This document shows, piece after piece, positions 2,206 through 47,270 of a DNA stretch of 64,000 bases. Every line of letters begins with the position of its first letter. Position 1 is the first letter of the stretch. This stretch comes from Elsinoe ampelina (Eukaryota), in assembly GCA_010093995.1 (NCBI GenBank), contig ML992520.1, forward strand, positions 1 to 64,000, in the 5' to 3' direction. The notes under the pieces were generated by a model. The model did no database searches, had not been told where the DNA came from, and worked only from the letters and a program-made list of their open reading frames with translations. Both the position numbers and the translations under genes were made by a program.

Positions 2206-3260
2206 TTAGGCCGTCACACTGAACGCCACTTTGGCGATCTTCCAGGAGCAGACGCCGCCAGGATTGACCGCCGTGACCCTGAACGCGAGATTGGCCGGCT
2301 CGCCGTCCGCGGCCTCGAACTCGAAGCTGGTCTGCTTCGTCTTGGCGGCACCGGTCGTCTTGTCCGTGGGCCCGGTGATGGCGTTCCACACGGCGCGACC
2401 ATTGAGGAGTACCTGCTGGGTGCAAGTGGCGTTGTCGGTCCATGCTACCTGGTTGAACGTCAAGCGGAAGGGGTTGGTGCTTTCGCGGAAGATGGGACTC
2501 TGGGAGATCTCGGCGATGTTGGCGGAAGTAAAGTTCAGCCCGGATGTGGCCAGGGTCACCTGGTTGCCCACGGGATCGGCGAAAGTGGGGGGGTTCACGG
2601 CGACAGCGCCTCCGGCATGGTTCCAGAAGGGGAGGTTGAGAGTGTTGTAGACGCCGTCGCCGGTCGCGACGCCACTGCCGCTGAAATATGGGTTCTTGAA
2701 AAAGTTCTGTGTGGCTTTCTTGTCCCCCACGATGGCTTTGCAGTTGGCCTTGAGTAGTTTGACGCTCATTGTGGAGAATGGGCTGGCGGTGATGCCGCCT
2801 CTTGGAGATGTCAGACATGGTGATATACATTTGGAAGCGCATGAGGCTTACTGTGCGAGGATGAAGGTACAGAAACCTGTCGGATCGGACACGACCTTGC
2901 TCATGGCATTGAGTGCCTTGTTCTTGACCATTTTGGCTTTGGGCAAAGTCGACTTGGCCTGAGTCGGTGTCAATAGCAGACATGGACAGCCCGAGACAAA
3001 GGCCGTCGCATCGACGTCGGGGAGAGGCGAGATTCGGTCATTCCTAGCATGTGTCAGACAGAGCTCCATGTATGGGTTTGGCTGCTACCGTACAGATACA
3101 AAAACCAGTAGCAGGCGAGCAGAGGTTCCTTGAACGCTGCATTGATCTTGCCAACTGTAGATTCGCCGGTGAAGCAAAAGCTCGCCGAATCCTGCCGTAC
3201 TTCGAGTGCGCCAGCCGAAGCCACACTCAGGAGAGTTGCGAGACTGATGATCTTGTTCAT
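2206..3260 (-). CDS. Secreted protein (~317 aa, 3 exons: 3260-3094, 3043-2852, 2800-2206) with two Cys-containing modules and a beta-rich C-terminal domain
   Basis: Signal peptide MNKIISLATLLSVASAG then LEVR|Q. Introns GTACGG..CTGAC..TAG and GTAAGC..CTGAC..AAG join three ORF fragments in frame (954 nt). Confidence 0.8.
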
Positions 3261-4270
3261 GTTGAGATTTTGAGCAGGGGAGTAGGTATGCTGCCACTTC
3301 TGTGGACATTGCACCTATCCTTATACTGGTTTGATCCCGAGGTCTTACCTCCATCACCTAGCCGATGGTCGCAGCCAAGCATTGTCTATTGGTGCGGTAA
3401 TGGGATAATTTCCTGATACATCCACTGACTGGAAACTCATGTGCCGCAGACCGATGGCAGACAGCGGCTTTAGTGCCCCTCGTACGTAGGGCGAGAAGGC
3501 CCTGTATGAGTACAAGCAAGCGTTGCTAGCTTTGCAACGTAAAGAACCTTCCTCATCTGACATCCGTGCAACGCTCATTGATTCAGAGTCGCTTCGATGA
3601 TCACTCTCCAGGAGATGCTCCGAGGTGAGGACGCTCTTTGCCTAACCAAAGCACGGAGATCAGACTAGGCTGAAGAGGCTCACGCTTGAGCTCGCACGTA
3701 TCTCTCGACATGCTTCCATCTCAATGCGCTCTGGTACTTGTTACATTCAATCTCTCGTAGACTATTGTCCATTTACGTTGTCATTCAGGACTCGACGGAT
3801 AGAGGCGTTGCCACAAGGACAAGTGCCCGTTTACGATATTGCTGAGCCGCAACGGCTCCGGATCCGTATAGCGAACTAGCTCCGTTGGAGGTTAGTTTGG
3901 ACTTTCCCCTGCTTCTCACACCCGAGGTAAAGCAACTTGTTTGGAAACGTCTCTAGCATCCTGCCCGCAAATGGCCAATGCGCGTGTTTCCTAACGTCGA
4001 ATGGACAGAATCTCGGTGCTGAAACCCCTTTCTCATCCACATATCGTGGCTTTGCGCGCCGTTTGACGTTCCTTTTGCGTTCGAGGCTCTGATCTGTATA
4101 TTGTCTGCGGCGTAGCAAGTCTCTTCATCTTAGCGGTATGGATACAGGAAAGCTTCGTGCCCCTATCATGGAGACAAAAGCGCTGCACTCCTCCACACGT
4201 TCGTCCGCAAGCACGGCTACGTCCCCGCTCGGCATTCTCAGTTGCAGGTGCACAGCATCAGCCGTGTCAC

Positions 4271-5629
4271 ATGATGCCTGGTACGAGCGATGTCAGCTAC
4301 AGTGCTGTGACTAAGGACGACTACGAGAAAGACGAGGAGGCCAGCAACCCAGAGATGCGTTTGTTCCTACACAATCATTCGAGGCACACCGCGTGGCACG
4401 ATTTTCGACGTCCATCGGTACTAGCGCTCGCTGCAAGCATTGTGTGTATTACCATGTTCCTAGTAGGATTCGGCTTCGGAAAGATGGATGGGCATTCGCA
4501 AAGGTCGTAAGTTTAACGAACCGTCATATGCATATTGTCCTGACGGACGCAGGGTTTCGGCCTCTGTTGTCAAGCAGTTACTACACATGGAACAAGCATA
4601 CGTAGCGAAAGAGAGCCCTGCCCACGGGTCTGCCACGAGTCTAGGGGCCGGAACAGCCGAGACAAACACAGTATTCGACGTTCTGAGGTCCTTACCCCCG
4701 ATTGATCTTTATCAAGAGTACGGAATGCGCCATGGCGAGCTTGCCCTCTATCCAGAACCTCTCAAAGACAGCATCTGCCTAGTGGACGTCGATACTAGGA
4801 AGTGGAAGCCGCACAGAGTCGATGAACCCAAAGAGCCACTTCACTTTGGCTATTTCAACCATTACCTATACGGTATGCTGAGCCTAACAACCCCGAGGTG
4901 AAATTGACACTGACATACTCCTCAGCGAAATTACATGGATATGCTTACAAGCACATGCAAGTCCCGGAGCTCTCAAATCTGAACACCACATGGGTCAAAG
5001 TGCGCGAGCTATACAGAATCACCATGATGGACGAATGTCGATTTGTCGTCATGGTAGATGGCGATGTCATCTTTCCTGATCTTCGGGTCCCAATGGAAGC
5101 GTTACTGAGCCACTGGAACATCACACAAGATATCATGATCGCGGGCGGGATAGATCTCGACAACACACATGATGTCCGTGGTAGACCGCAGTTCAATACC
5201 GGGTTCCTCGTCACGCAGGACACGCCTTTGTTCCCTAAGATGATGCAAGATTGGATCGACTGCCCGACGGATGTCAAGTACAAGACTTGTTCTCAGTGGC
5301 GCTGGAAATGGGCTCGGGAGCAGGCTGCCTTCTCAGGCTACATTCGATATGATCCGGAATACAGCCCATATATCCGTCACATCCCCGTGGAGGACGTTCA
5401 TCAAGGCCGATTCACTAAACACTACTGGGGCTATTCCAAGCGATTCCTCGCAAAAGCCTCCAAACAGGCCATTCTGGATCGTTTCGTGCCTGATATTTAC
5501 AAGGGCCTCTTGGATGATTGGTCGCGAGTACACGAGCACGTTACAGAGGACGTCTACGAAGACTTGCAAAAGTACACCCAACATACGGATGTCGAGGACA
5601 AGGGAAAGAACCTAGCTGTCCCTCAGTGA
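4271..5629 (+). CDS. GT34/GMA12-MNN10-like type II membrane glycosyltransferase (exons 4271-4506, 4553-4872, 4926-5629)
   Basis: N-terminal TM (VLALAASIVCITMFLVGFGFG); NHYLYAKLHGYAY, WVKV, DXD motif (MVDGDVIF), FNTGF, EQAAF; canonical introns restore frame. Confidence 0.8.
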
Positions 5630-6283
5630 TGTCAAAAGGTCTTCAAGAGGGCTTGGACGCATGTCTATGATGATAACGATCCTGATTATGATGAATTCGG
5701 GTTGTGTGTATATAGAATACTTTCAATGGCCTTTGCTGCCCAAGTTCCGTTCGCCAGATCAAACTTGAGTAGTAAAGTGAACGATTGCAGCACGGGCGAA
5801 TGAGTGCAAAGTAGAGCAGACGGATCACGCGTTGTACTGTAGCCACCGAAGCTCCAATCTAGCATGACGTCTGCGACCTACACATCGTTTCCGGCACCAT
5901 CGCTCCAGGCGAAGCATTGGCACGTTTAGTGGTTACCGTATGCTGACATCGACGCCAGTGTGGTGTGGGGCGAAATCGCTTCAAAATGCCCGCCGCTCCC
6001 CATAGAAATTATTAATCAACACCAAATCCATCGACGAAATATGAACAACATGGAACAGTCGTCATCACAATCGTTGCGGAGCACGTCCGGGATCGCCGGC
6101 AAGATCGGTATCTGCATACAAAAGCTGCCCTGATTGATTAGCCACGGCGGGTTTGCCGCACCGTTATGCCCAGGCGCCTCCTTGTTGACGGCCCCTAAAG
6201 AGCGCAGACCCAGATGGCACCGCTCAAAATCAGCATGCAAGTCTGTTCATGACCTGCTCGATCACTTCACGACAAGCAAAACA

Positions 6284-7530
6284 ATGATGAAAGGCATGTA
6301 CGAGCCGCTGGATGTGGCCCACAAGAAGACATTCACCCCGGACGACGACGAGCCATCAGCTTTCGTCGATGACGAAATGCTGAGGAATGCCTCGAGGCGC
6401 GCAAAGTCCCAACAACGCAACCTTCATGGGTATGGAAACATATTCGATCAGATAGACCGCAGGGCAGAAGTACTCTTGGGACGTTTGAGCACATCGACCA
6501 AGTTGGCGATCTTCGTCCCCATCTTGCTTAGTGCTGTGCTGAGTCCTATGCTCCTGATTATGCAAAAGTGAGTCGATGCACTCTTGTTGATGCCATTCGG
6601 TCATGGATACATGCTGACACGTGCAGTACCCGGCTGACGGCACTGTCGAGCGATATCCCGGCCATGCTGAAGCAGATGCCCTGGAACCCATCTATGCTTC
6701 CCCCATACCCCGTCCTAGACCAATTCAGAGAGCGAGCAGACTTTTCAAGTAGTCGATTTCCCACACCGCTGGGCGGCAAGGTGGTTCTCCTTGACGTCGA
6801 CACACGGCCTTGGAGCATCCCGGATGCTTCCAACATGACTCAAATATCTTATGGTCGTGCTAACCACTGGCTGTATGCCAAGATGCATGGCTATGATTAC
6901 AAGTACGTGCAAGCGCCGGAACTGCCTGGGGAGATCCGACAGACATGGGTCAAGGTCGACGCTATTCGCAAAGTGCTCCTGGAAGGCTATCAATTCATCG
7001 TGTTTACCGACTACGACATTGTCTTTCCCCACCTCAAGATACCGATCGAATGGTTCTTGGACTTCTGGAATGTCACTCCGGAGATCATCCTCACCGTAGG
7101 CTCGGTTCCGAATCGCACCGACAAATACGATCAATTCCATCGTCACCTTAGTATCAATACCGGCTTCATGATCATCCAGAACGCCCCGCATGCGCTTGAC
7201 ATGTTGAAAGATTGGGCTGAGTGTCCATCCGAGGTCAAGTACCCTGGATGCGCGCAGTGGAAGATGAAGCTGTCAAACGAGCAGAATGCCTACGCTGATT
7301 ACGTACGGTACACTTACCCCAACACTACGAGGGACATTGAATGCGACCAGGTCACTTCGTCCGAGTTCATGACCATGCCACGGGCCAAGAAGTGCAGGGG
7401 AACTCTGATCCAGCATTTTTGGTCGAAGAAGGACGAGGTCAAGAATGCAGTGCAGGCATCCATAGCCAATCTGATATTTCCGGAAGTCGTGCGGGAGATG
7501 AAGGACACGGTTGTCCCACATATAGAGTAA
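6284..7530 (+). CDS. GT34-like glycosyltransferase, tandem paralog (exons 6284-6567, 6627-7530)
   Basis: TM (LAIFVPILLSAVLSPMLLIM); NHWLYAKMHGYDY, TWVKV, FTDYDIVF (DXD), INTGF, CPSEVKY, EQNAY; intron GTGAGT..CTGAC..CAG. Confidence 0.8.
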
Positions 7531-7898
7531 TAGCTCGTGTATAGAATAGATCGATGCAGGGTCTGTCTCTACCTAGTGCACGTGGTCGCAGCCAAAGTTG
7601 CGCCCTGTGATTGGTTCGAAGCGCAGCTTTCTTCTCCGCATATCGTCACTGCCCGAGAACGCAGTTCAGCTGGCTGCACCTCGCCTGCTGCTCCTACGAT
7701 CGATGCACTCCATCTTTCTCCCGTTTCGCCCTGCTCCCGAAGCTGTACCACACCTACGATTGCTCCATGTATAGCGAGACCGACATCATTGACTATCTCG
7801 TCTAGTTTCGCTCCGCCTTTGCGCTAGTCTGCGTCGGAGAAGGCCCTCCAGGCACTCGGCCGTTGCGCCGTATGCGATTGCGCGACTAGGCCTTCGCC

Positions 7899-10800
7899 AT
7901 GGCCAAAAAGGCGCGTCAAAAGATCAGCTACGGTAGGCAAGGTGAAATGAGAAGCCAGTACATAATGACTGATGGTCTTCTACAGTGCTGCCACTGGCAA
8001 AGTCTGCCGGTGGACATCGTTTAGGCGTCAATGGTCTTGCTATTGACCCCACCAATTCCATATTGTACCTCGACCCTCGACCAACAGACCTGACCACATT
8101 CACGGACTAATTCCGAACAGATACTCCGGCGGCCGTGACGGCGTGATTTGCGCATGGGATACACACCTCAATCTTCAGGAACCTCAAAGCCCGCTCGCGG
8201 ACGGCGCAAAGAAGCCCAGCCCTCCTGACACCACGTTCAGGCAGCAAGTTCAGGCGCACACGAACTGGATCAATGATATCGCCTTGGTTCAATCCAATTC
8301 CGCCCTTGTCTCCGCATCATCGGATATTTCAGTAAAGGTCTGGCGACCAGCGGCCCAAGATCCTATCCCGCCTCAGACTGTGGGTCTTCATTCAGACTAC
8401 GTCAAGGTCTTGGCCGTCCCAGATGTCCACGAGAGCTGGATCGCAAGCGGGGGTCTCGATCGCCGAATATCCTTGTGGGACTTGAGCGGGTCGGGTCAGA
8501 AGCTCAGTATCCATGTCGCTGAAGACGAAGGCGGCACTGCCAACAAGGACAAAGGCAGTGTGTACGCACTCGATGTCACGCCTAATATCCTCGCCAGCGG
8601 GGGTCCAGAAAGCGTGGTCCGTGTTTGGGATCCAAAGAGCGGGAAACGGATAACCAAGTTCGTCGGCCACACCGACAACATACGGGATATCCTCATATCC
8701 AAAGATGGGGAGACAATCATGACAGCGAGCAGCGATCAGACCGTCAAAGTCTGGAGCGTCACGGCTGGCCGATGTATGCATACGCTCACGATGCACGACG
8801 CAAGTGTCTGGTCTCTCTGGTCGGACGAGCCTTCCTTGTCGGTCTTCTATTCGTCCGACAAGTGCGGCTTAATTGCGAAGACAGATACCAGAGGATGTGC
8901 CGAGCTTGATGAGGGGTTGAGCATAGCGGTCGCTCAAGAGCACGAAGGCGTACACAAGCTCGTGTCTGGGGGCGACTATATTTGGACCGCAACAAGCAGG
9001 CCCAGCATCAACCGGTGGAACAACGTCGACACTACGAATGCCGAAGCAGACTTCCCGGAGAGCTATCGGGCACATCGCTTCAGCGTCTCGACAAGCCGTT
9101 CCAAGCTGACATCAAGCACGTTCCAGAACCAGACCACCAGCCCAACTCGACAGAACAAAAAGCAGATACCACTCAAGCATGTATTGCGATTGAGCAATAC
9201 CGCCTTCTTCCCGACACAAATTTTTAGTGACTCGGATACAAACACCGAACGCGGCCCTCGCAGAGGTACTGTTCAAATACTTGACGCGGAGCAGCACATG
9301 GCCCAGCCCGTGCACGCTAGCCCGGAATCTGCCATCGAAGGACAGAACGGCTTGATAAAGCATGTCATGCTCAATGATCGACGCCGCGTGTTAACACTGG
9401 ACACGGCCGGGGAGGTCATCATGTGGGACCTTTTGAAGGTGGGCCAGTGCCAAATTTCAATGCATTCTAAGCTCATTTCACCCAGTGTGTACCTGTAAAG
9501 TCTTTCGGAAAGCGTCATATGGAAGATGTACAGCCCGAGGTGAGTACTATGGAGTCGGTGCCCAACTGGTGTACAATCGACACGCGGACTGGATCGTTAG
9601 CCATTACGCTGGAAGAAAACACCTGTTTCGATGCAGAACTCTACGCCGATGAGATGGAAGAATACCATGACATTGAGTTCAAGGATGACCAGAGAAGTGA
9701 GGTAACTCTTCCAAGTCTCTAGGTGCTGGGATCTGACAATGTATAGTAAACCTGGGCAAGTGGGTTCTGCGATACCTCTTCGATAGCATAATTGCTGAAG
9801 AGATCAAACGCGATGTGGAGTACAGGCAACATACTCTGGCGTCGCATCAAGCTCAGCGCATGGAACGGGCGAACGCACCTCTGGGCATCCAGATTCCACC
9901 ACTTCCGACCGACTTCAATGGCATCGGTGATGCAGGGTCGGACGCCACTCCACGACCCCACGATGTCGCTCGAAGCCCCATCACGCCAGGTCTAGCCATC
10001 TCATTGGCAACACCGGGCGGTTTGACGCAAGCCAATCATGCTGTTTCGAGAGATATCGGTAGCGCCATCGCTGAAGAACAACCACAAGCCAGCGCAAATG
10101 GAGAAATCATTGGTCTCAATGCCAATCGTCAATCCGGCGATTACTTCTCAGCGAACGCCTCTCCCAACCCTGCCGCTTCCCCACAGCCTGCCAAAGACCC
10201 TACTACACCGGCTGCGGCCCCTGTTGATGAAGGGAAAAAGTCACCAGAGGAGCCCAAAGATGGCGAGAACAAAGATACACCCAGCAAATTTGGTAAGAAG
10301 TTCCGCATGAATATGACGTTCAGCATGAAAAAGCTGGGACGCACATCGACATCTGAGAAGGAGAAGCCTGCCGAGGAGGAGAAGAAGGAGGACAACGAAA
10401 GCGATTCCCGTTCCAACAAGACCAGCGATTCCCGGCAAGTGGACGAGAATTTCCTAGGTGTTGTACAGAAGATTCATTTCGACTACAGAGATGCCCTAGC
10501 ACAAAAGGCTCAAGCGCAGTATGCTCAGGACGCTGCTGGTGGTGCACTTGGCGACGCACAAGACGTTGACCTGGAGACACTGATCCAACCAAGCTTACCA
10601 TCCGAGACGCCCGTGCTAAAACCACCTCAAAATACTACCATCTTGATTCAAGAGGACAGGCCCGAGGCGGGAGGCGTTGCTGATCTTTTCGAAGGCACTG
10701 TCGGAGAACTTCTTGATCACATCGACACAATCGAAAGAGTGGCCCCAATGTGGTTGGGTGAAGTCCTGTTGAAAAACCAGATACCGATCAAAGATGTTGT

Positions 10801-17112: not shown

Positions 17113-17737
17113 TGAAGGCTCCGCGGCGAGGGTCCCGGGATGACCAGCTGACGGCTGTGTTGGACATGGTTGCAACCACAGTTTCTACAGATGCTTCATG
17201 CTTCAGGTTTGCATTGCGCAATGTCGACACACTTGGCCCCTTTGATGTCAATTCTACTTCATATACTCTTTCAATTGAATGAAACTGCAGCTCGTTGAGC
17301 AATCCTACTAAGCGAAGCTTATGCCTTACCTTGACCACAGCAGTCGACGAAGCAAGTTCCTTGAAGTTGCAGACACGGTCGGCAAAGAGGCCGATATTTT
17401 GCTACGATCCTGGAGATTGCGCTCATCGTCGGGTAGATTGACATTCTGGCAAGAAAACCTTTCCTAGACGTCCTCTGGAGTTGCGCTTCGTGACTGGGCA
17501 CAGTCGTCGCTCAGATTAGCGCCCATGAGCCATGAGACGGATCCGGTAGGGACGATTGTGTGTGAGGCATCGAATGCAATTACGTACATTTCTGTGCATA
17601 GAGGAGTCGTGTCGGTGAGAGCATACACGCCTCACGGTGTCTCCAATGCGGGAGCATTTTGGAAGGCAAATGTGTCAATCCTTCGCCAGCTGGAGGCTTA
17701 GTCCAACGCGCGGAAAATCGAGCTGCCAAGCCGGATA

Positions 17738-17870
17738 TTCTCCTTTGCAAAAGGGCTGGGATTTGCTTGGCAAATTTGCTTGTAAACGTCAGCTTAAACG
17801 ACCATTTTTAGCCCAATAGCTAGTAACTCACCAATCTATCGATAATTAAAGCTGAAAAAAGGTGTAATAG
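17738..17870 (+). repeat. Left terminal inverted repeat (outer 35-bp block plus inner 22-bp block)
   Basis: Outer block 17738-17772; inner AAGCTGAAAAAAGGTGTAATAG 17849-17870. Confidence 0.9.
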
Positions 17871-17951
17871 TGAAGTTGGTGCTGTCGAATTTAGTGATCG
17901 AATAATTGACCAATTTGCAGCCAATTTACGTGCGCCAGCGTCGCGGTCGCA

Positions 17952-19006
17952 ATGCCTCAAACATACCTCATTTTATCGCCCTATCACGTCAACCGCATCC
18001 ACGAGCTCTTCCTCTCTAGTATGAGTGCTAATGACGTTGCCGACCTTACAGAAGGCCTCTCGAGGTCGAGATCGTACCGCTTGAAGGCTAATTGGCTCAC
18101 CTTTAGTCATATCGAGCGTCCGAAGGCGTTAAAGAAGGGGGGGCGGCCACCCCTATTACCACTCGAGGTGTTGCTAGATATGCAAAGGCTATTCGAGGAG
18201 GAGTCAGATATGTACTTAGAGGAGCTACAGGATCATTTGGAGTCCTATTGGTCGATTGATGTGTCAATTAGCACCATCTCCAGAGGGCTAAAAAAGTCGA
18301 ATTACACCTATAAGGTATTAAGTCGTGCTGCTGGCCAAAGGGACGAGGTACTCCGTGCAGAGTACCGTCAAGAGATGGAGGCCTTCACTGCCGACTAGCT
18401 CGTGTGCGTAGATGAGACTGCAGTCAATGAGAAGACTCTATGGCGCTGCTCCGGCTGGTCACTGAAGGGGTTACCGGCCATGGACCGCTCGGTGAGAAAG
18501 ACGAGCAAGCGCTGGTCAGTACTTCCAGCGCTTACTATTGACGGTTACCTCTGCGGCGTAAAGGTGTTTCAAGGCTCAATTACAGCTGCAATATTCGAAT
18601 GCTGGCTTCAAGAGGAGGTACTGCCGCAGTGCTCACCTTATCCAGGCCCACGGTCGGTGTTGGTGTTAGATAATTGTCGAATTCACCGGAGGAAGGTGCG
18701 TGAAGAGTTTGCACTCGCCGCCGCCGGCTGCTTAGCTAATCACGTCAGGTGGTAATTAACCTTTGTCAACAGCATGGTGTCATAGTGCGGTTTTTGCTAG
18801 GCTATTCGCCAGATTACAATCCAATTGAGCCTAGCTTCCATATATTAAAGCAGTACATGCGGCGTAATAGGAAGGAGGCACCGCAGCTTGATATAGAGGG
18901 ATACCGGCGTCAGTTTGAGGTCTTCATCCACGAGTCTTATGAGGACTTCCAGAGCGGCGTTGACTTTAAGGAACTATTCAAAAAGTGCGGATATAGGCTT
19001 GAATGA
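17952..19006 (+). pseudogene. Tc1/IS630-type DD34E transposase (intron 18696-18748; one in-frame TAG at 18396-18398)
   Basis: GRP motif and HTH region (DMYLEELQ...VSISTISRGLK); catalytic VDET, VLDNCRIH, YSPDYNPIE with 34 residues between second D and E after splicing GTGCGT..CTAAT..CAG. Confidence 0.92.
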
Positions 19007-19012
19007 AGTTAT

Positions 19013-21100
19013 CTATCTATCACTGTTAATCTGCTGTGATTGCGTGGCACGCTCGGATTGCTCCTCCTCGTCAGACGAGATCATGCCAGGTATCTGCCTT
19101 ATAAAGAGGCCGAGGTGCTGCTTTACCTTCACCCTAATGCCGTAAGGAGGGATCATCCTCTCCAGCATCTTATCACTCGATCGCAAGAGCAATTTAAGAT
19201 CCTAGCAGTCTGCAATAAGCCGCCGAGCGGCGTCACAAAGAGGCACCTTAAAGCGAGGGTAGCGCTGCACGAGAGAGTCAAAAAAGCGAGTGATATATTG
19301 AGGGTCTTCAACCTCAAGGGGGAGAGAGCTTGACCGAAGAGTTTCGAGGTTGCCAATGCTCGTCGTTGGCGCGGAAGAGGGGTGGGGGGTGGTCGGAAGG
19401 GCTGAGGGTGACTCTGAACGAGGGGCTGGAGGTTGGCCACCATTATAGAAGTACTGGTTGAAGATAGGGGTGGAAGGAGGCCCATTAGGAGGAGGGTTGG
19501 ATTTGCCTTGTTGCCTCTCGTGTTGCTTACGCTTTGCTGACCGCTTATCCTTACGAGCCTCGGTGGCGGCGGTGATGAAATTGATCATATAGACCGACGG
19601 CCTGCTGGCAGTGGACTGGCCTGCAGTGGTATCACGCCGCTATTCGTTAATGATATTGGCATCGATAGCATAGTGAGTGCCACCAATGACAATACACGCC
19701 ACCTTATCCGCATTGGGGCATCGGCCAGTTTTGCATTGGTAAAACTCCTTAATATCGCGCCAAAACCGCTTGCGGAATATCTTCTCAGCCTGCGCATTTA
19801 ATGCTGATAGTCCTCGAGGTGCATTGTGGTCTGGTTGTCGTGGTATAGCTTAGGGGGGGTGGGTGGTGGTACCTCGGATAGTACGGGGATTGGCGGCATC
19901 AGCCGGTGCCAAGATATCCTCCTCGGCAGAAGTACTCTGCTCTGAGGAGAACCTCCCCTATCGATTATTGACATGTAATCGTAGCTCCTTCTTCTTCAAA
20001 CTATGGTAGTGCCTCATGAGGTCGATGACCTCATGCCACGGAGATCCTAGGACCTAGAAGTCGTCCACAGAGTTGACGGGGTCACCCTTTGCAGAGGTGA
20101 TGAAGAGCTCGGCCTTCCGAGAGAGGGAGTGGCATTGCAGGCCTTGTGTGTGAGCAAATAGACGGACGGCAGTTGCCGCCTCATCACGGATGCTGCCAAC
20201 ACCACTATTAACATTGCAAAGCTTGTTGAATCGCTTGAGCTCCTTGCCATCAAAGAGAACTGTCCACACTAAGACGAACTAGACGTTTGGAGGAGGTGTT
20301 GGTGATCGCTGAGTCTGAGGGTCAGCGGAAGGACTTGGCGATTTTCGTTGACGGCGACGACGAGGTGGTTTCGACTTGGATTGACTCCGCTTCTTCCCTG
20401 ATGCTTAAGGTGCATCCTGTGATGCTCCTCCACCAGTTGCCTCATTATCCGATTGCTCTTGTGTGGCGATTGCTGAATTGGAAGGGGGGGGGGATGTCGG
20501 TTAAGAGACACGCCTTCTCGGCACTGATTTTGCAGCACTCCGGCGAGTGACCCTTTGACTTTTTTGGATAGGCGATTCAGCTTGTGATTCAACCTCTTCC
20601 ACCTCTTCAACTTCACCTCCTTCTTCTTCAACAACCACAGGTCGACTTTGGCGCTTGCGCTTCCTCTGAGCACTCCTCATGGTTGGAGCCTCCGGATCGA
20701 GGTTCTTTGGTGGCTTGCCAGCATTCATGCGTGCTGTCCTTCTCACTGGCGCTTCTGCATCACCATCGCCATCATCTTGTGAAGTTTGAAGGCCAGCAAA
20801 CTTGACGTGGTGTGAGGATTAAGCCTGGGCCGACTGAGGGGGGGGGTCGATAATTTCGCAGTATCCATCCGGAATAGGCGACGGTGAGAGCTCCGATAGA
20901 TCACTCATTTCTGCAGGATATCCAGCATTTGATCCATCTTCCTCCACCAACTCTTCATCACGCTCAATAGAGCCAGAGGCTGAGGCACCGAGGGGGGGGG
21001 AGCTTGGTGGTGCTGCAAACGCGCTAGGGTCGAAGTCGTCCATCTCGGCGATCAACCGGTCAATTTGCGTGCGAGATGGATCAATTGGATTGAATGACAT
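19013..21100 (-). pseudogene. Transposon second ORF (~695 codons, single frame, 9 premature TAA/TAG stops); unknown protein with CCCH and SAM-like motifs
   Basis: ORF-track fragments 20819-21109, 20501-20746, 20054-20269 and 19202-19588 share one frame. Manual translation through the stops gives a continuous protein from ATG 21100 to TAG 19013-15 with no frameshift. Confidence 0.85.
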
Positions 21101-21119
21101 GTAATCCAACTCGGACGAG

Positions 21120-21252
21120 CTATTACACCTTTTTTCAGCTTCAAAAAGGACGAATTGGGCAAGTTGTGGTGGTTTGGGTGAGAACTGGTCAATTTGGTGG
21201 TGGTTTACATGCTAAAATGCCAAGGAAATCCCAGCCCTTTTGCAAAGGAGAA
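21120..21252 (-). repeat. Right terminal inverted repeat
   Basis: Inner CTATTACACCTTTTTTCAGCTT 21120-21141; outer TGCCAAGGAAATCCCAGCCCTTTTGCAAAGGAGAA 21218-21252. Confidence 0.9.
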
Positions 21253-22592
21253 TAAAGCTGCCCAACCCTCTCAAGCAGAGACCGTCTAGATGCGCGGCGG
21301 CGCGACGCTTTGCTCGGTCTAAATCCTCCTCTTTATGCATGCATGCCACCACCACAACATCACTAGCTCCGTCGTTCCTTTTGCTCGAGACGCACACGAG
21401 CGGCGCGGCCGCTCCTCATCCTCATTCACAGGCAGTCGAATGCAGGTTTCTCGCTGCCACTTTGAGATTGTGTGTATCCCGCCAGACACCGCAGACCAGG
21501 TCGTTTCCTAGCCTGGAGTATGGACCCTCGATCGATCCAAGGACCGAGGGATCATTGCGAAGCGGTCTGTTGACACCCCTCTAGCTTGCTGCAGACATTT
21601 CCTCCTGCAGATGATCTGTCCTTGGTGGTACAATGCCTCAATCTCGCTTGCTAGTGGATAAGCGCTCTCAAATATGGTAAGCTGGATGCAGGGCATGCAT
21701 GAAATCTCCATGTAAGGTTTCGGTTCTACCAACCTCATCTCCGAGACTGAGACCCCTGTTCCCTGCCTAGGTTTCACTGCAGGAATTGCAACAGGCGGTG
21801 CGGACCTTGGCAATGCTGGATGCTCTATCCGGATTGAGCATATGTGCGGTTATAGCGCGACTGCACTCGACTCCTCCCTCGACGGTTATGGACGGTTGTG
21901 GCATAGCACCGAGCACGCACTCTGACGGCCACGCCAGTTGAGGCTCGCGATGGGTGTGCCCTTGCATGGATCGAGGAAATCCATGGCATCCTGCATTGTG
22001 GCAAGGTCCTCTGACTGTCAGGACCTCGTCTACCACTAAAAATCTAGTTGGATGCTCGCTCTTTCATACGTATTTGTGGCAATTGCTCCGTATCTACTTC
22101 AATTCAGAAGGACCTGAAGTTGCGGTGCAAGCCGTACTAGCCCTCCCGCCATCACGAGACACTATAGCAGCCCTGGAATGGAGCTATGCCTCCTCGCACA
22201 TGATGCGCCTCACGTTGGTAACGTTGCACTAATGCAGAGCTCGAAAGTCCTGCCAAGATGCTCACCGACTGGCATGACTGCAGCTATACCCCTCTTCGAA
22301 AGGAGCACGGTCGACGCCACGGTCTGAGGACGTCTCCGGGAAGTCCGCAGTGCGAACACGGTCGATTGTATTACGCGACAGGAACATTCACGGCATCTCG
22401 TATGGGAGATTTCGGCATCTCTGTGAGGGAGACAAGGACGGCCTCAACTTAGGATGGACGAACATAAATAATCGAGGTCCTCCGCCACTGGGGCATTCAA
22501 TCACACCTGCCTTCTCAAGTCTTGAAGACCTACTTATTTCTCCAATCTCGTTCCCGAAAGTCACACAAGACTCTCCATCATTCCCCCTCAAG

Positions 22593-24620: not shown

Positions 24621-26711
24621 ATGTATACGTTCCGATCATTGCTCGGCTATGGCTTGACACTTCTCTTGGCTGTCGACAACTTGCCGCTCGCACTGGCCGA
24701 CATCAATCCTTTTGTAAAGAGCGAGGAATACATGAAGAGCATATGGGGCGCTCATCCGCGACAGCGTTATTTATCCGACCTGGTCGCGATAGGCCCTGTG
24801 GGAAACATTGTCAACCGCACGGCGGAAGGTCGGTCGCCCAGCAGATATATCCTTTATGCTCCATACGGCCCACTACACCCCCCGAATGCCCCCACAGTCC
24901 TCGACGCAGACACACTTTCCATGGTTTGGTACGGGCCCATCCATGGCAAGACGACAGTGGGTCCGACGGTGCATACCTGCAAGGGAGCGCAGTACCTTAC
25001 TTTCTGGTCTGGTATGCAGTTGTATGATCGCCCAGCTGGTAGCAACTACTTTGTATGTCACTCGAGAAGAGATTGATCTCAGGACTTGCTCGCTGACCTT
25101 GTCTAGTATGACACAGAATACAACCTCAAATGGAACGTAAGCACGCAGGGTCACCTGGAATATGCCGACTCGCATGAGATGTTCCTCACGCCACAGTGCA
25201 CTGCCATCATCAGCGCCTTTCAGACTCGACCATACGACTTTGCTCCATTTGGACCAAGCGAGGGCTTTCTCAAGGATTCGTTCTTTCAAGAGGTTGATCT
25301 AGAAACTGGCAAATTGCTCTTCGAGTGGCAGGCGTCCGCACACGTCGACCTCACAGAATCGTTTTGGAACCCCAGACCAGGCGAAAAATTCAGTCCTCTT
25401 GCCGGTTTCGACTTCTTCCACATGAACAGCGTGGCAAAGGATGAGCACGGAAATTACCTGATCAGCGCTAGGCACACCCACACAGTCTATTACATCTCTG
25501 GCCGTGACGGGACCATCCTTTGGAGATTGGGCGGCAAGCTCAACGACTTCAAAGATCTCAGCGAAGGACACGCCACGGATTTCAAGTGGCAGCATTTTGC
25601 CCGCTGGATAGATGCAAACACGATCTCCCTGTATGACAATGCCAACGCAGAGCATCATGCTCCTGCCGTGGGCACTTTGTCGCGCGGCCTTGTACTAAGA
25701 TTGGATTTCGATGCCAAGACGGTTCGCATCGAGCACTCTTACATTTCAACCAACGGCATCCTCTCCATGCGAGACGGGAGCATGCAATACCTGCACGACT
25801 CTCCTCAGCCTGGAAATGCCCTTCTTGGGTATGGAGGGGATCCTGGATGGACGGAATATACGCCTGACGGGGCTGTCGTGGACGATGTCATGTTCGGGCC
25901 TGTTGGCGCTGACCGTAAGAGCGCAGACAACTATCGAGCCCTCAAGGTGAACTGGACGGGTACGCCGCAGTGGATGCCAACTATTGCCCCAGGGCCCGAT
26001 CTTTTATATCACTTCGATGCCGAACACTCTATCTTTCAAGTGCTACTAAATGAGGAGTCCGGTGTGCCTAGGCCCAACACCACGGCTTACTTTAGCTGGA
26101 ACGGAGCCACTGAGGTTGCATATTGGGTAGTGCTCACATCGAATACGACTGCCGATCTGAACATTGCTGAACACTTCTGGGCTCAGGTCCCGAAGAGAGG
26201 GTATGAAGACAGCTGCTACATCGGCTACGGCACCAAGTACGCCCTGGCTCTGGCGATTGATACATCTGGCAATGTTCTCGGCAGCACCGACACCATGGAC
26301 ATGGCGAACTATGTCAATGGCCAGACGGGTCCAAAGACGGGTCGATCTCGCAATACCGAGGACTTGACCGCTGCACTCCGGAAGTATGTGTCTGGACATC
26401 CTTCGGGGTCTCTTATTGCACAGTTGCAAAAGCAATGGCATGGCGGGGTCGAGGCAATTGCTCAGCGACCGCACATCTCCCTGGCTCTGATTGGACTGCT
26501 GGTGCTTTGTATTCTTGCATTCCTGATCGTCCTTAGAAGGATGCGGTGGAGTAGGGGTCGCTCAGGATACTTTCGATCCAAGATGGCGAACATGGTCCTA
26601 CCCCGGTCAAGTCGGGATGCGTGGTCGAAGGACTACTCGGACGGAGAGGAGATGACGGAGGACAAGGATATGTTGATGAGAGATTCATCGAGGGATCCTA
26701 GAGATGACTAG
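24621..26711 (+). CDS. Arylsulfotransferase (ASST)-domain type I membrane protein, paralog 1 (intron 25053-25106)
   Basis: Signal peptide; DSHE, FQEVDLETG..FEW, FHMNSV.KD..GNYLISARHT, WQHFAR, SWNGATEV motifs; C-terminal TM (ISLALIGLLVLCILAFLIVL) followed by RRMR. Confidence 0.88.
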
Positions 26712-33795: not shown

Positions 33796-35817
33796 ATGTT
33801 CCTCAACATTCTCTTCTTTGCGGTTTTGTTCATCAAAGACGGGCTTTGTGATCTCCCGCCTTTCAATAACAGCTCAGACTATCTCAATGGCAAATACGGA
33901 AACTACACACGACAACGCTTCTTGTCAGACGAAGGAGTGATAGCGCCTGTTGCGAACGTTCTCGTGCCCGCTGGCGAAGGCGTCTCTCCGAGCAGACACA
34001 CTCTTTGGGTACCAACAGGGCCTAGAGTCGGCGTCACACATCCTATCCTCCTTGATACCAAGACCCTTTCTGTCGTGTGGCACAGCAGCATGAATGCAAA
34101 ACTCGGCGCTGCGAAAGGACGGTGCAATGGTACGGATTACATGTATCACTGGTCGCAAACAGGCACACAATTCCATGATGGAAGGTTCTTCTTCGTGTGT
34201 AATCGCATCTCATTGTTGTTCTCCCATGGCTGATTCATGTCAAAGCACAACTCCGAGTATGAGCTAGTCTACAACGTCACTACAGTTGGAAAGTTTCCAA
34301 GCGCGGATGCTCATGACTTATATCTGACGCCAAATTGCACCGTAGTCTTTCCCATCGTCAAAGAGCACCCGTTCAACCTCACGGCATACAATATTACCAA
34401 TGGTGTACTGAAAGATGCGTATTTTCAGGAAGTAGATCTCGCTACCAACCAGTTGTTGTTCGAGTGGAGAGCAAGCAAGTTCATCGATCCTTTTACCACT
34501 TATTGGGACCCGGAGACTCGCAAGGAAGGGGTGCCGCGGGATGCACCATTCGATTGGTTTCATATCAATAGCGTCCAGAAAGACGACCGCGGCAATTATC
34601 TGGTGAGCAGTCGGCATACGCATTCCATCTACTATGTTTCCGGATTGACTGGAAATGTCATCTGGACCGTTGGCGGCAAGCAGAATAACTTTCGGGACAT
34701 GAGTTCAGGAAAGGCCACCGACTTCGCTTGGCAGCATCACGCTCGGTGGGTTGACACTGAAATGACGAAGATTCAATTGTTCGACAATCGCAACACGCCT
34801 TGGCACAGCGCCGAAAGACCGTACTCCCGGGGTATAGTACTTCGTCTCGACACAGTCAGAAAAGAAGTGTGGCTAGAGCACGAATACCTATTTCAGCCAC
34901 TCAAGGCCGTCCGTGAAGGAAGCATGCAAGTCCTCACGGACTCCCCGAGAGGTCACACGGCCCTTGTGGGCTATGGGCAACAACCAGCGATCACAGAGTT
35001 TAGCGAGGACGGCGCTGTTATCTGGGATGTGGCCTTCGGACCGATGCACTTGGACCGCGAAAGTGCCGATAACTATCGTTCCCTCAAATTCAACTGGACT
35101 GGGACACCTGCCTGGAAGCCCAAGATTGCTCCCGGCCCTCAACCTCAATACGCCTTCGAGAGTGAGAATAGCACTTTCCATATCGCTCTTCATGACGACT
35201 CGGGGAACAGTATTCCCAACAACACTGCCTACTTCAGCTGGAATGGAGCTACGGAGATCAAAAAATGGATTGTTCTCGCATCCAACCACACATCAGACCT
35301 CGGCATCGACCACATGTGGGCCGAGATACCAAAGCTAGGTTTCGAAACGAGCTCCTTTGTCGGCGAATCAACCAGGTTTGTTCAGGCGTTGGCAATCGAC
35401 GACAAAGACCAAATCCTCGGGCAGACAGCCGTCCTGAGCATGGGCAGCAGTGACGAGTCGCGCGAGTTCTCTCTGAACAACAGCACTGCAGAGCTCCATG
35501 ACTTGACCACCATGTGGCACGCCTACCTCAATGAGAAGGCAAACCAGCCGTTCTGGTATCAGTGGCATACAAAATGGGAGGAAAAGACAGGCAAAGCCGG
35601 CACGATATCAGTGGTCGGAGTTCTGGTCGTGGTCATACTGTTTGGTGTCTTGGTCCTGGCCGCGAGGCGGTACTGGCGGAGGCGTCGAGGAGATGGTGTT
35701 TACAAGGGGCGATCACCTGGGTCATTCGCCGACACTGATGTGGACGATGAGGCGACTTTGTTGGCTTCGTATTCGGACGCTGGTTCTTCTCACAAATTAG
35801 AAAGCGCATGGAGGTAG
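33796..35817 (+). CDS. Arylsulfotransferase (ASST)-domain type I membrane protein, paralog 2 (intron 34195-34245)
   Basis: Signal peptide MFLNILFFAVLFIKDGLC; DAHD, FHINSVQKD..GNYLVSSRHT, WQHHAR, SADNYR, SWNGATE; C-terminal TM plus RRYWRRRR. Confidence 0.88.
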
Positions 35818-37385: not shown

Positions 37386-40300
37386 ATGGCGGGGCTCAAA
37401 GAGCTCTTCAACCATGTGGTTCTGCCGCCAGACCTTCCCACGCAGGAAGACACCAATCTGCCTGCCATAGGTGATGCTCTGGCCGCTCGTCTGCAGTCTG
37501 CCTGCAATATTATGGTCAAAGAATCCTCTGGATCGCTTGCAGCCACATACCAGCATCTTCACATGTCCCTCCGCCTAGCTAGACAGCTCAACTTCGGTAG
37601 GCTGGACAAGGAGAAGCTTCTCGATAGCCTCAACAAGCTCCAACCAAACGAAGTCATCATCCTGGACGTCACTAAACAGAACGCTGGTCTCCTTATACGC
37701 ACCTCGCCGAAGTAAGCAACGTCATCTATAGCACACGAACTCTTCTGACTTTTCACAGTGACAAAGATGAGACTTCTGTCATCTTCGAGACGTTCGAGAC
37801 GAGTGCGCCATCTGCTATAATTCTTCAAGCTGCCGACAGCCTGCAATGGGACTTCCCTGGACGCGCTGTGCAAATCCCACTTTCCACCTTCAACGACACA
37901 TCTTTTCAAGAAGCTCTGGCTACCTTTCTCGAGCGTGCAAGCATGGAATCCCTTCACCAATTCCAAGCAAAGGTGCAAAAAGCGGGAAATACGGTCATCG
38001 AGGTCCGGGATGTGAGCGAACCGACCATCATCTCCCAGATGTTGATGTCGATCATCGAAGCAATGGGTTCTGCTGTCGACGTTCCCCACCTACGCAAACG
38101 AGTGCGCGACGACGTAAATTTTCGCAACGCCAAATTGCCGTGGAGGCGCCATCCCTACTGGCTCGTTCTCCGCGTTTCGCTACAACGTCAGCTCGGCATC
38201 ACACTTGGTGCTGAGACTGGTCGTGCCTGCTACAAACTCCTCATGGCTCAATTTCATGCTGAGCTACTCCTGGACTGTACTGGAAAGCTGGCTCCACAAG
38301 CTGTTCATTCCCTGCGATCTAAGCTGTGTCGGCGTATGGCGAAATTGGCAAATCAATCGCCGGGTGGGTCTGCGGAGTACAAAAGCATGTTCGATCTCGT
38401 TCATTCCAGGATCAGTCGTCGTGTTGAGGGTGCTATTCAGAGCGCTACGTCGGCCATTGAAGATGCCTGGTCGCAATTCAAACGAAGGAACATGCGTCCA
38501 GTACCTACCTTGCAGAAGCACGCTAGTCTTCACGACACAACTCTCGCCCTCCATAATAGCGGTTTCTATCTGGACCACGTTCTGCATCTACATTCCCAAT
38601 TTGTGGTCCCCGGTCATCACATCACACTGCCTGTGGAAGAACTCTCCAAGACAACTGAATCTCAACAGCTGGCCTCCAAGCACATGCAATTGGCCAAGGC
38701 GGATCGTGCAGCCCAGAGGCAACTCGCTGAGTATGCTGCGACTGATACAGCTACGGAGGACCATATTCAAGCCGTGGCAGACAAAATCATCGAGCACATC
38801 GCCACGGTTGGGGAAGCATACAAGGGCGATCCTCTCTTGATAAGCTCTATGCTACTCACTGTCTTCGAGCTTTGGGTCGCTATGGACAAGGCTGCTGTCG
38901 AGATTTGTCCAGAATTGAAGCAGTATCACCCCGTCCTGACTGCACCTTTACTGGACACCCTTCAGCTGGAACGCCATTCTGATCTGGACCGCCTTGCCGC
39001 CATCCAAGACTACCTCTTCGCTCGCTGCTCCGCGTCGAAGTCAGCCGACGCCTCTATCTTTCACCAGAACGGGCGGTGGAGTTTCGCCTTCAATTATTAC
39101 CAGCGATCGGCCACTCTGCAGAGGCTCTTTGGCCGCATCCAACGGGATTCCGCAGCAGCGCGGGCGAGAAAGGAAGAGGAATGGGAATCAATGAAGGATG
39201 AGTATGCGGATCTCTCACGTAAGATTGAGCAAGGCACATGCATCTGCTCCATCAACGCAGATGGCTCTCGCAATGTGAAGGGCTGCAACAAATGCTGGCA
39301 TTGGAGGACGAGAAATCGACTTCAGATCAACGTCCATGAAGACTTTCTGCCCGCGGACGCTCAGGCTGCAGCCATTGTCGTCTTTGAGCTGGGCATGCCA
39401 GACTTCCTTCGCCAGTATCGCGATGTGACGTTCAAATTGATCTGCGATATCGCACATCCCAGCAATCTCTCAGACAAGCGCGCAGCACCTGTCCTCATGC
39501 TTCAGGACTACTCCCAGTTGAGGACATACAGTAAAGGATCGTCGCGTTTCACCATGGCATCATCCACCAAGTCGCATCTCACTTCTCATTACAAAGTGTC
39601 GCAAGTCAACGCATCGGCAAATACTGTGCTCACGAACCTCGGCGCAACGTTCGAGTATTACGATACTTCTTCTCGACAATGGCTTCATGGCTTCCCGCGC
39701 ATCCCTACACAACTCACTCTGCAGCACCTCTGCGGTGTCTCGATACCGCGAAGTCTCAAAGTCGTGCTTCCTCATGCGCCTCACCCGCCGATCAACGGAA
39801 ATCACAACATCTCCTCCTACCAGATACAAGCCAATCGTGCCAAGTGTCCGAAGCATCTGCCCGTCCACGAATTCTCCTCCCTGCAGAAATTGGTGTCGGC
39901 CTCGTCTTTACGCTGGTCCAACATTCTCGTGGAACTCTGCGCTTCCAATCTCAACTTCTCCAGCGCGGAAACCACTCAGCTGATCTGCGAGTTGTCCACT
40001 CAGGCTGGCCCACAATCTCCCGGAAAAGACGTTCGCGACTATCATGCCATGTTCCTGGACTCGTCATTCATAGAGCGTCTATGTGAACAGGTCGAAGCTA
40101 AGCTACAAAGCATCTCCACCAATTGGGGTGAGCTTCACTGCATGGACCTCATCATAACTCTGTCATTACGTATCCTGTCCATGACTGACGGGGCGAGTCA
40201 GTCTTCGGCTCTTGCTTTGATTTCATCAGCTCGCGAGGTCACCGTCACGTGGATTCGTCATTTCCGCGAGGAGTCCGAAACAGCATCAACTTCTGCTGCG

Positions 40301-46712: not shown

Positions 46713-47270
46713 GGCTTGCTAGCAATATTGGGCGTCCTCGGACCACAGGCTGGTGGGGAGACGACAATAGTGAGGTTCGGGAACAGGACGTCCGCAATGT
46801 GCAAGGGGTGTATAATAGATTTCATCGATTTGAATAGCAAATGTGAAGAAATCCGATGAGACAGCTCTGTGATCTCGGAAGAGGTGCAATATGTGACTAT
46901 CGCAAAGGGAAGGGAGTCCAGCTGATTTGCGGCAGCGGAGAAATCCAAGGCCGCGGGGGACGCGGGGCGGAGCGGAACTCCGCTGGTTGCTGACTCGTGT
47001 TTCATCTTGGCAGGGTCGCGCTTGATTGACGCGTGACAAACGGACCGAACAATTTCCAGACGCAAGCTCAAAGCATTCACCTTGCCACAACAAACGATCC
47101 ATTCAACATCAGAAGTCTCGAGCTTTTGGGGATCACCCATACCGAAAGACAATCTCGGCCTAGTCAGCTCCATTCCTGAGAGCTTCCTACATTCGTCAAG
47201 CCAATCGACCTTTCTGGAGCTCTGGTCTGGGAGTGGTGGACTAAGCCTGCATGGCTGCGCTACGAAAACT

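Follow-up and report, generated by a model that had tools for sequence, protein, structure and literature searches.

What did a reading frame of 695 codons encode if it is now interrupted by nine stop codons, and does it still make a protein? This question is raised by ORF2, an open reading frame (ORF) on the reverse strand (19013-21100, ending in a terminal TAG) of a 64,000-nucleotide (nt) stretch of Elsinoe ampelina DNA (positions 1 to 64,000 of contig ML992520.1, assembly GCA_010093995.1; hereafter the window). ORF2 sits inside a 3515-nt element, a Tc1-type DNA transposon (17738-21252), and belongs to it as a gene that is conserved and under selection in a lineage of two-gene Tc1-like transposons. 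In the window it probably represents the second gene of a fungal two-gene Tc1-like (DD34E) DNA transposon, in a copy that is no longer functional. The initial annotation of this DNA had proposed a hidden single-frame gene with a zinc-binding module and a SAM-like C-terminus; the β-grasp domain described below, and the finding that a whole transposon lineage carries ORF2 as a fixed component, go beyond it.

ORF2 and the transposon around it

Translation of ORF2 gave one frame with exactly nine internal stops (four TAA, five TAG and no TGA). With the terminator included the frame holds 10 stops, compared with 16-50 in the other five frames. In 2000 mononucleotide shuffles the count was 28.1 +/- 5.0 with a minimum of 14, and none was as low as 10. 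A chance open frame was ruled out by the shuffles together with the stop counts of the other five frames. No frameshift is needed because homology crosses the stops without a change of frame: BLASTP to the protein P0002 gave one segment (residues 129-533, 191/414 identical, E 4e-113), and single HMMER stretches to full-length relatives covered residues 76-678 (P0004) and 24-675 (P0006). The initial annotation's account of one frame, nine stops and no frameshift was confirmed by the translation, the shuffles and these unbroken homology segments. The segments that it had singled out were all found in the translated ORF2, namely RKRKRQ, KPPRRRRQRK, FVLVW...LRLHV, YITRFFDSL...GLF and FWRDIKEFYQ-C-KTGR-C-PNADKVA-C-IVIGGT-H-Y, the last of which corresponds to C456-x4-C461-x7-C469-x6-H476. 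Its expectation that automatic annotation would fragment the gene also held, as the only named relatives are a truncated model of 433 amino acids (aa) and a 439-aa Myb-type fusion.

When 1.84 billion representatives were searched in full with HMMER, 19 proteins were returned at E<=1e-3, of which 7 were at E<=1e-10 and 3 at E<=1e-30; full-length relatives of 670 and 701 aa were among the 19. The closest relative, P0002, is a 433-aa 'hypothetical protein' of Elsinoe fawcettii that is 46% identical over residues 129-533. P0003 (439 aa), also from Elsinoe fawcettii, has a Myb-type N-terminus fused to an ORF2 relative without the Cys segment, and its label, 'telomeric DNA-binding factor trf1-like', does not describe ORF2. 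A word-indexed protein search with ORF2 gave two matches, both of them Elsinoe fawcettii models; the same search with the family profile gave P0002 only, low-complexity words having probably filled the candidate list. Pfam gave no convincing family for the window ORF2, for the 19 aligned members or for a later set of 30. A PDB sequence profile search with the ORF2 family gave nothing below E 0.5, and a metagenome scan with an ORF2 alignment gave 115 pattern matches, none of which was confirmed. Judged by these searches, the relatives of ORF2 are a small fungal family without a Pfam or PDB sequence match. Across the lineage, ORF2 identities drop to about 20%.

The surrounding element was found to have the features of a Tc1-like DD34E transposon: a DDE_3 transposase, a 34-residue catalytic spacing, inverted repeats and a TA duplication. 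Both termini consist of TA followed by TTCTCCTTTGCAAAAGGGCTGGGATTT. The inverted arms of ~133 nt are made up of an outer block of ~37 nt and an inner block, AAGCTGAAAAAAGGTGTAATAG, and repeat alignments of the arms extended over 81 nt at 79%, 25 nt at 96% and 136 nt at 73.5%. The transposase product, of 333 residues with helix-turn-helix regions, is encoded in two exons (Table 1). Exon 1 matched Pfam DDE_3 (PF13358; E 4.3e-12, 46.6 bits with a cut-off of 28.6) as well as HTH_33 and HTH_32, and contains one in-frame TAG (18396-18398); exon 2 matched PF13358 at E 1.2e-5. The distance from the second Asp to the Glu is 34 residues, counted on the spliced LDNCRIHRRK followed by VVINLCQQHGVIVRFLLGYSPDYNPIE; in the transposase of an intact relative, L002, these residues are D235 and E270. 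Compared with its relatives from protein searches, the window transposase is at most 49% identical, and the named relatives are 'Tc1-like transposase DDE domain' proteins of Basidiomycetes.

The two genes of the element are convergent: the transposase (+) is read from the left end towards the interior, and ORF2 (-) from the right end. Their stops are 7 nt apart, and the ORF2 start lies 20 nt inside of the right arm. Because the inverted ends enclose a second conserved gene, we regard the element as a variant and not as a plain Tc1 member.

Conservation across related loci and decay of the window copy

To collect metagenome loci, only a transposase alignment was used as the query; of 595 pattern matches 367 were confirmed, and the best 80 of these were kept. 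The six frames of these 80 loci were then searched with the ORF2 family profile. The locus transposases are 31-52% identical to the window transposase in the best-matching segment. An ORF2-profile match was found in 31 of the 80 loci. In thirty cases the match is on the strand opposite to the transposase, at a distance of 17-679 nt (median 265) past the transposase match; the 31st (L072) belongs to a neighbouring 3.4-kb element bounded by terminal inverted repeats (TIRs), with its own transposase on the other strand, and is again convergent. Overall, no ORF2 match fell in 147,854 nt upstream of the transposases, compared with 31 in 154,148 nt downstream. ORF2 was present in 25/39 loci with at least 1000 nt of downstream sequence and in 21/33 with at least 1500 nt, and the 3' part of the gene was visible in 5/41 shorter loci. 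The sequence at L003 (3244-4524) encodes the family member P0007 exactly.

Of the 30 two-gene loci, ten were examined for inverted repeats; in all ten, repeats of 29-184 nt enclose the pair of genes, and the elements span 2.8-3.9 kb. The termini at L003 and L006, TA followed by TTCTCGCTTGCA, resemble the TA followed by TTCTCCTTTGCA of the window. At L002:5311-9179 lies an apparently intact two-gene element in which both frames are open, the transposase (5516-6544) encoding 343 aa and ORF2 (7052-8971, -) 640 aa. Its 60-nt ends are 97% complementary. The copy at L003 has an ORF2 that is 99.5% identical to that of L002 and an interrupted transposase frame.

A quick maximum-likelihood tree of the transposases included 80 of 81 rows, L010 being omitted as too short. 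ORF2-bearing rows were found on both sides of the tree midpoint, and the window clustered with L002, L003, L044 and L006, all of them two-gene (Shimodaira-Hasegawa approximate likelihood ratio test, SH-aLRT, 89). At least eight state changes are required among the 43 labelled rows. Close pairs or groups in ORF2 (L002/L003/L044, L009/L025, L040/L042, L019/L037 and L016/L038) also adjoin in the transposase tree. Branches are long and the deep forks weak in this tree, and no order of events was read from it. From the distribution over these loci, ORF2 appears widespread and old in the lineage.

To estimate selection, the ratio of nonsynonymous to synonymous substitution rates (dN/dS) was calculated by the Nei-Gojobori method (NG86) between related elements. 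The five pairs gave 0.227 (L003-L044, 614 codons), 0.184 (L040-L042), 0.297 (L019-L037), 0.21 (L009-L025) and 0.178 (L016-L038), the ratios being rough for two pairs because dS was near or above 1. Within L003-L044 the ratio was 0.41 in the disordered half, 0.34 in the Pro-rich linker and 0.18 in the β-grasp domain, and fell to 0.074 and 0.046 in the Cys/His module and the SAM-like domain, respectively. By this measure the ORF2 relatives are under purifying selection, which is most marked in the SAM-like domain and the Cys/His module; a ratio near 1, which would have spoken against the gene as first proposed, was not what we obtained, all five pairs lying well below it (0.18-0.30). The matched part of ORF2 is stop-free in 19/30 loci and holds 1-13 stops in 11 loci; the apparent stops of L002, L003 and L044 fall past the true terminator.

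The initial annotation had further expected homologs to keep the Cys/His residues and their spacing, and this test too came out in its favour, although the spacing is not fixed. The 18 sequences that cover the module all share the three Cys, the His and P501. In a 44-row alignment, from which L002 and P0007 were dropped as duplicates of L003 and in which three rows lack the module, C456 is kept in 39/41 rows, C461 in 39/41, C469 in 40/41 and H476 in 39/41. The exceptions, with Tyr, Arg or X, occur in L019, L038, L040, L047 and L059; of these copies, all but L059 contain in-frame stops. The spacing is variable, at C-x4-5-C-x7-10-C-x6-17-H. Elsewhere in the alignment G654 is kept in 42/42 rows, and aromatic residues predominate in three columns where the window has a stop: X487 (Trp in 37/42), X633 (Trp or Tyr in 33/41) and X381 (Trp, Tyr or Phe in 23/36).

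The reading of ORF2 as a host gene that was captured once as a passenger and has no role in the element is close to refuted by these data. In its favour, host-gene capture by transposons does occur, and ORF2 matches no known family or function. However, ORF2 is found in 31/80 loci across the whole transposase tree with constant position and orientation, it has diverged together with the transposase in the close pairs, and its dN/dS between element copies is 0.05-0.3.

All 10 premature stops in the element (nine in ORF2 and one in the transposase) are TAA or TAG, and three of those in ORF2 (X381, X487 and X633) replace the conserved aromatic residues. Three TGG codons are left in ORF2. A change from TGG to TAG is a G>A change in a TpG context, as made by repeat-induced point mutation (RIP). 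A DNA run of the same organism, X1, gave 133 contig pieces on the element with 333 differing places, at which C>T (123) and G>A (134) stand against T>C (21) and A>G (14). The summed contig depth of this run, which is not a copy number, was ~2000-2400 at one end of the element (17682-17963) and 1457 at the other (21066-21206), compared with ~150 in the flanks and 147-756 over ORF2. The depth at the ends hints at many end-bearing fragments or deletion derivatives and, together with the transitions, leads us to conclude that other, more mutated copies or fragments exist. To judge from these base changes, RIP-type mutation killed the ORF2 copy, and the window ORF2 is a pseudogene.

A contig of 3128 nt from another run, X3, is identical to window positions 17921-21100 minus exactly the 53-nt intron of the transposase, and flanks the intron junction by at least 255 nt on each side. 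This splice joint fits RNA, with an intron-less DNA copy in that sample as the alternative; the RNA labels of runs X3, X4 and X6 are guesses, and neither the strand nor the ends of a transcript can be read from their contigs. Copies of both genes that are ~90-93% identical occur in X4 (same organism label) and in X6 (other organism label), with 54 differences in 774 nt of transposase and 207 in 1986 nt of ORF2, gapless and with balanced transitions. The X6 contig runs on across the same splice site.

These contigs bear on two further readings. The first, that the window copy is still functional through readthrough or recoding of TAA and TAG, was rejected. It would accommodate both the restriction of the stops to these two triplets and the apparent transcription of this copy or an identical one; however, neighbouring genes of 2845 and 4337 codons contain no TAA, TAG or TGA, so that these are not sense codons here, and in addition three of the stops fall at conserved aromatic columns and the sister copies show RIP-type decay. 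In the second, ORF2 is a self-limiting regulator that represses transposase activity or expression and so keeps the copy number tolerable. Convergent 3' ends (7 nt apart in the window, median 265 nt in relatives) would permit transcriptional interference or antisense overlap, and one X3 contig spans both genes, but that contig gives no indication of strand or transcript ends and none of the domains described below points to repression. We consider such a regulator improbable.

Two other features of the loci were observed. At L031:1-3821, a 3.8-kb element with 131-nt ends that are 99% complementary, a 429-codon open frame (2526-3812) lies past the transposase on the same strand and has no ORF2-profile match; this may be a different second gene. 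In the transposase relatives P0023-P0031 and at loci L009, L012, L013, L020 and L037, the transposase frames are only ~234-255 residues long and begin after the first ~85 residues (the first helix-turn-helix region), and a missed upstream exon is possible. These first ~85 residues are present in the window, L002, L021, L061, L075, L059 and L042.

Predicted domains and possible roles of the ORF2 protein

AlphaFold2 was applied to ORF2 residues 268-695 with 20 aligned sequences, and gave a model with a mean predicted local distance difference test (pLDDT) score of 78.7 in which three confident domains are split by low-confidence linkers (Table 1). The N-terminal half that precedes them has acidic runs as well as the basic tracts RKRKRQ and KPPRRRRQRK, and X94, X200 and X232 fall within it. 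Two short conserved motifs were observed in this half: [RK]-x-V-[RKH]-[FW] and, ~25 residues on, R-S-T-x-G-[KQ]-x-P. The same motif region is found in P0004, P0005, P0006, P0018, L003, L044, L027 and L013, and the motifs are reminiscent of the histone H3 tail and of a docking motif for PP1.

The first of the three domains is predicted to be a β-grasp. Superposition on PB1 domains gave Z scores of 6.3 (root-mean-square deviation, rmsd, 3.4 Å over 87/88 residues), 6.0 and 5.8; superantigen, streptokinase and SUMO β-grasps scored little lower, and the Foldseek E-values were ~1e-2 to 3e-2. With the three-domain model, Foldseek gave no match at E<=0.001. The second domain carries the four conserved Cys/His residues. 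When folded alone (113 residues) it reached a pLDDT of 91.3, and its elements follow as a long helix, a two-Cys loop, a β-hairpin that supplies the remaining Cys and the His, a pair of short helices and another long helix. Four conserved Cys/His residues on a knuckle and a β-hairpin are the general pattern of zinc-binding modules, and the domain is therefore predicted to be zinc-type. Net charge is positive in the Cys/His region of 39/41 sequences and in the helix after the module of 42/43.

The C-terminal model superposed on the SAM domain of tankyrase-1 (5jti_A) with a Z score of 8.6 and an rmsd of 1.8 Å over 61/63 residues, followed by DGK-delta (Z 8.2, 3bq7_A) and then CNK2, Shank3, SARM1 and Ste50. 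Proteins that are SAM or SAM/Pointed by title occupy the first 19 rows and ~35 of the 50 matches listed; the SAM superpositions as a whole run from Z 8.6 to 7, those from 8.6 to 7.5 having an rmsd of 1.8-3.4 Å over 61-72 residues, a range in which, according to the fold tool's caution for helical bundles (Z under ~13), a common arrangement may be all that is meant. The C-terminus thus models as a compact five-helix bundle, the SAM-like fold that had been proposed for it, with a pLDDT of 93-96. An ESM Atlas cluster named 'putative SAM domain-containing' (rank 11, score 0.89) is a lead only. A complex prediction for the L002 transposase with ORF2 residues 240-640 scored 0.00 with controls not run, and says nothing either way.

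Several observations weigh against reading ORF2 as the conserved second gene of a fungal Tc1-like lineage that encodes these domains. No ORF2 match was found in 12/33 loci with at least 1500 nt of downstream sequence. Short one-gene relatives, whose inverted ends hold a transposase only and lie 1.3-1.75 kb apart (Table 1), are nested among the two-gene elements in the tree; therefore ORF2 is dispensable in cis and possibly altogether. The fungal origin of the metagenome loci rests on named relatives only. The RIP indices of the window copy (TpA/ApT 0.76, (CpA+TpG)/(ApC+GpT) 1.33) are near those of the flanks and outside the RIP range, so that this copy was only lightly hit. The best Z score of the Cys/His module was 4.3, with none at 5 or above among 48,161 chains (VIA), and its best Foldseek E-value was 2, with none at E<=0.001. 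Lastly, Pfam SAM_1/SAM_2 matched 0/19 members at E<=0.1 and 0/30 at E<=1. For this reason, and because of the caution on Z scores of helical bundles, we call the C-terminal domain a SAM-like fold and not a member of the SAM family.

The intact ORF2 protein may, as a tentative proposal, have been an element-encoded cofactor that helps the transposase to assemble on the two ends. Its basic tracts would give it nuclear entry, its SAM-like and β-grasp domains would self-associate and in this way pair or scaffold the element ends, and binding to nucleic acid at the ends, or to nearby chromatin, would fall to the zinc-type module and the basic helix that follows. This proposal is patterned on the Myb-like protein of Harbinger elements or TnpA of En/Spm. 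It is doubtful, though conceivable, that this large lineage is a fungal two-component Tc1-like system in which a polymer-forming ORF2 protein is required together with the transposase, either pairing the ends or, by way of the short motifs in its disordered half, shielding the element from heterochromatin or RIP-type silencing.

Linkage and selection fit equally well with an ORF2 protein that acts on the host, as a chromatin or silencing antagonist, or adaptor, that protects the element from heterochromatin, RIP or RNA silencing. The polymerising domains and the short motifs of the disordered half would then do the work. SAM and PB1 domains occur widely in scaffold proteins of chromatin and signalling, two short motifs are conserved in the disordered half, and one-gene relatives exist, so the chemistry of transposition may not need ORF2. 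However, a profile of the motif region built from five sequences matched nothing among PDB sequences at E<=10, and no histone; the motifs are lacking in many family members, and no host partner was identified. We judge action on the host to be unlikely, and the same holds for the part given to the polymerising domains and motifs.

Table 1. Positions of the features of the element, of ORF2 and its in-frame stops, of other genes in the window and of one-gene relatives at metagenome loci
Feature	Position	Strand	Basis or remark
TA flank, left	17736-17737	.	Sequence read; target-site duplication with 21253-21254
Left terminal inverted repeat	17738-17870	+	Alignment of both arms
Transposase exon 1, 248 codons	17952-18695	+	Pfam, translation; helix-turn-helix regions and first two catalytic Asp
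Transposase intron, 53 nt, GT..AG	18696-18748	+	Sequence; skipped exactly by run X3 contig
Transposase exon 2, 85 codons and TGA (19004-19006)	18749-19006	+	Pfam DDE_3 positions 100-138; catalytic Glu
Right terminal inverted repeat	21120-21252	-	Alignment of both arms
TA flank, right	21253-21254	.	Sequence read
ORF2 residues 1-269, N-terminal half	20294-21100	-	Alignments; aligns poorly between relatives
ORF2 residues ~95-135, two short motifs	20696-20818	-	
ORF2 residues 270-385, predicted β-grasp (β-β-α-β-β-α-β)	19946-20293	-	AlphaFold2, pLDDT 89-97
ORF2 residues 427-532, long helix, C456/C461/C469/H476 knuckle and β-hairpin, basic helix	19505-19822	-	AlphaFold2
ORF2 residues 593-674, predicted SAM-like helical bundle	19079-19324	-	AlphaFold2, pLDDT 93-96
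Stop X94	20821-20819	-	TAA
Stop X200	20503-20501	-	TAA
Stop X232	20407-20405	-	TAA
Stop X274	20281-20279	-	TAG, at β-grasp domain edge
Stop X349	20056-20054	-	TAG, inside β-grasp domain
Stop X381	19960-19958	-	TAG, inside β-grasp domain
Stop X417	19852-19850	-	TAA
Stop X487	19642-19640	-	TAG, at Trp column of relatives
Stop X633	19204-19202	-	TAG, at Trp/Tyr column, in SAM-like bundle
Arylsulfotransferase gene (ASST, PF14269)	25107-26711	+	Paralogous to the next, ~9 kb apart
Arylsulfotransferase gene (ASST, PF14269)	34234-35817	+	
Gene with DUF6606, DUF3638 and DUF3645	37676-46213	+	Single 2845-codon open frame
Cytoplasmic dynein heavy chain	47037-60050	+	One 4337-codon open frame
One-gene relative	L022:163-1500		
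One-gene relative	L065:2233-3604		
One-gene relative	L072:5653-7024		
One-gene relative	L052:5634-7382		
One-gene relative	L067:5718-7249		

Comparison with known systems

A search of the open full-text literature, which does not cover Repbase or subscription journals and so leaves room for an earlier description there, brought up neither a two-gene Tc1-like element of fungi nor an account of the ORF2 family. Neither appears in passages of PMC3158057, PMC7325037, PMC4112212, PMC3562529, PMC3441728, PMC5751038, PMC2836289 and 10.1101/2025.11.13.688278. The lineage yields a protein family without a Pfam entry, together with a zinc-type module that is predicted with confidence and has no match among solved structures, and it accounts for 'hypothetical protein' gene models that are truncated or fused. 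Intact natural elements such as that at L002 make the role of ORF2 directly testable.

The individual domains resemble known ones to different degrees. The C-terminal model superposes over nearly the whole SAM domain of tankyrase-1, DGK-delta, CNK2 and Ste50, although ORF2 has no sequence match to the Pfam SAM families. The predicted β-grasp domain may share its topology with PB1 and other ubiquitin-like β-grasps, at middling scores. The classical CCCH zinc finger has the spacing C-x8-C-x5-C-x3-H, from which the variable spacing of ORF2 differs, and Pfam gives no match to it.

Two-gene elements with TIRs are known in other superfamilies, and the sections of PMC3562529 on such elements include Harbinger as an example. 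Like the window element, PIF/Harbinger elements combine a transposase with a non-catalytic protein between TIRs. The likeness is one of layout only, as the transposase belongs to a different superfamily and the accessory protein there is Myb/SANT, of which there is none in ORF2 (0 Pfam families). The ciliate elements TBE and Tec are Tc1/mariner-related and carry several ORFs, one TBE ORF being a zinc-finger protein according to the part of PMC7325037 that treats them. They differ from the window element in their ciliate hosts, their three ORFs and their layouts, and the zinc-finger likeness is by description only.

The closest comparison is with the Tc1-type (DD34E) elements of the IS630-Tc1-mariner group, with which the window element has in common the TA duplication, the outer and inner inverted-repeat blocks and a DDE_3 transposase of ~333 aa. 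A second constrained gene that is kept through long divergence suggests an unrecognised requirement or a defence in fungal hosts. Tc1/mariner elements serve as the model of a minimal transposon, with a single gene and no dependence on the host, and have found wide use in gene transfer. Classical Tc1-type elements have one gene and a length of about 1.3-2.4 kb, and their general description in the relevant passages of PMC3441728 is the same. If ORF2 is truly required, it would break the textbook rule of one-gene Tc1/mariner self-sufficiency. In contrast to the classical one-gene members, the lineage to which the window element belongs is 2.8-3.9 kb in length and has a conserved, convergent second gene.

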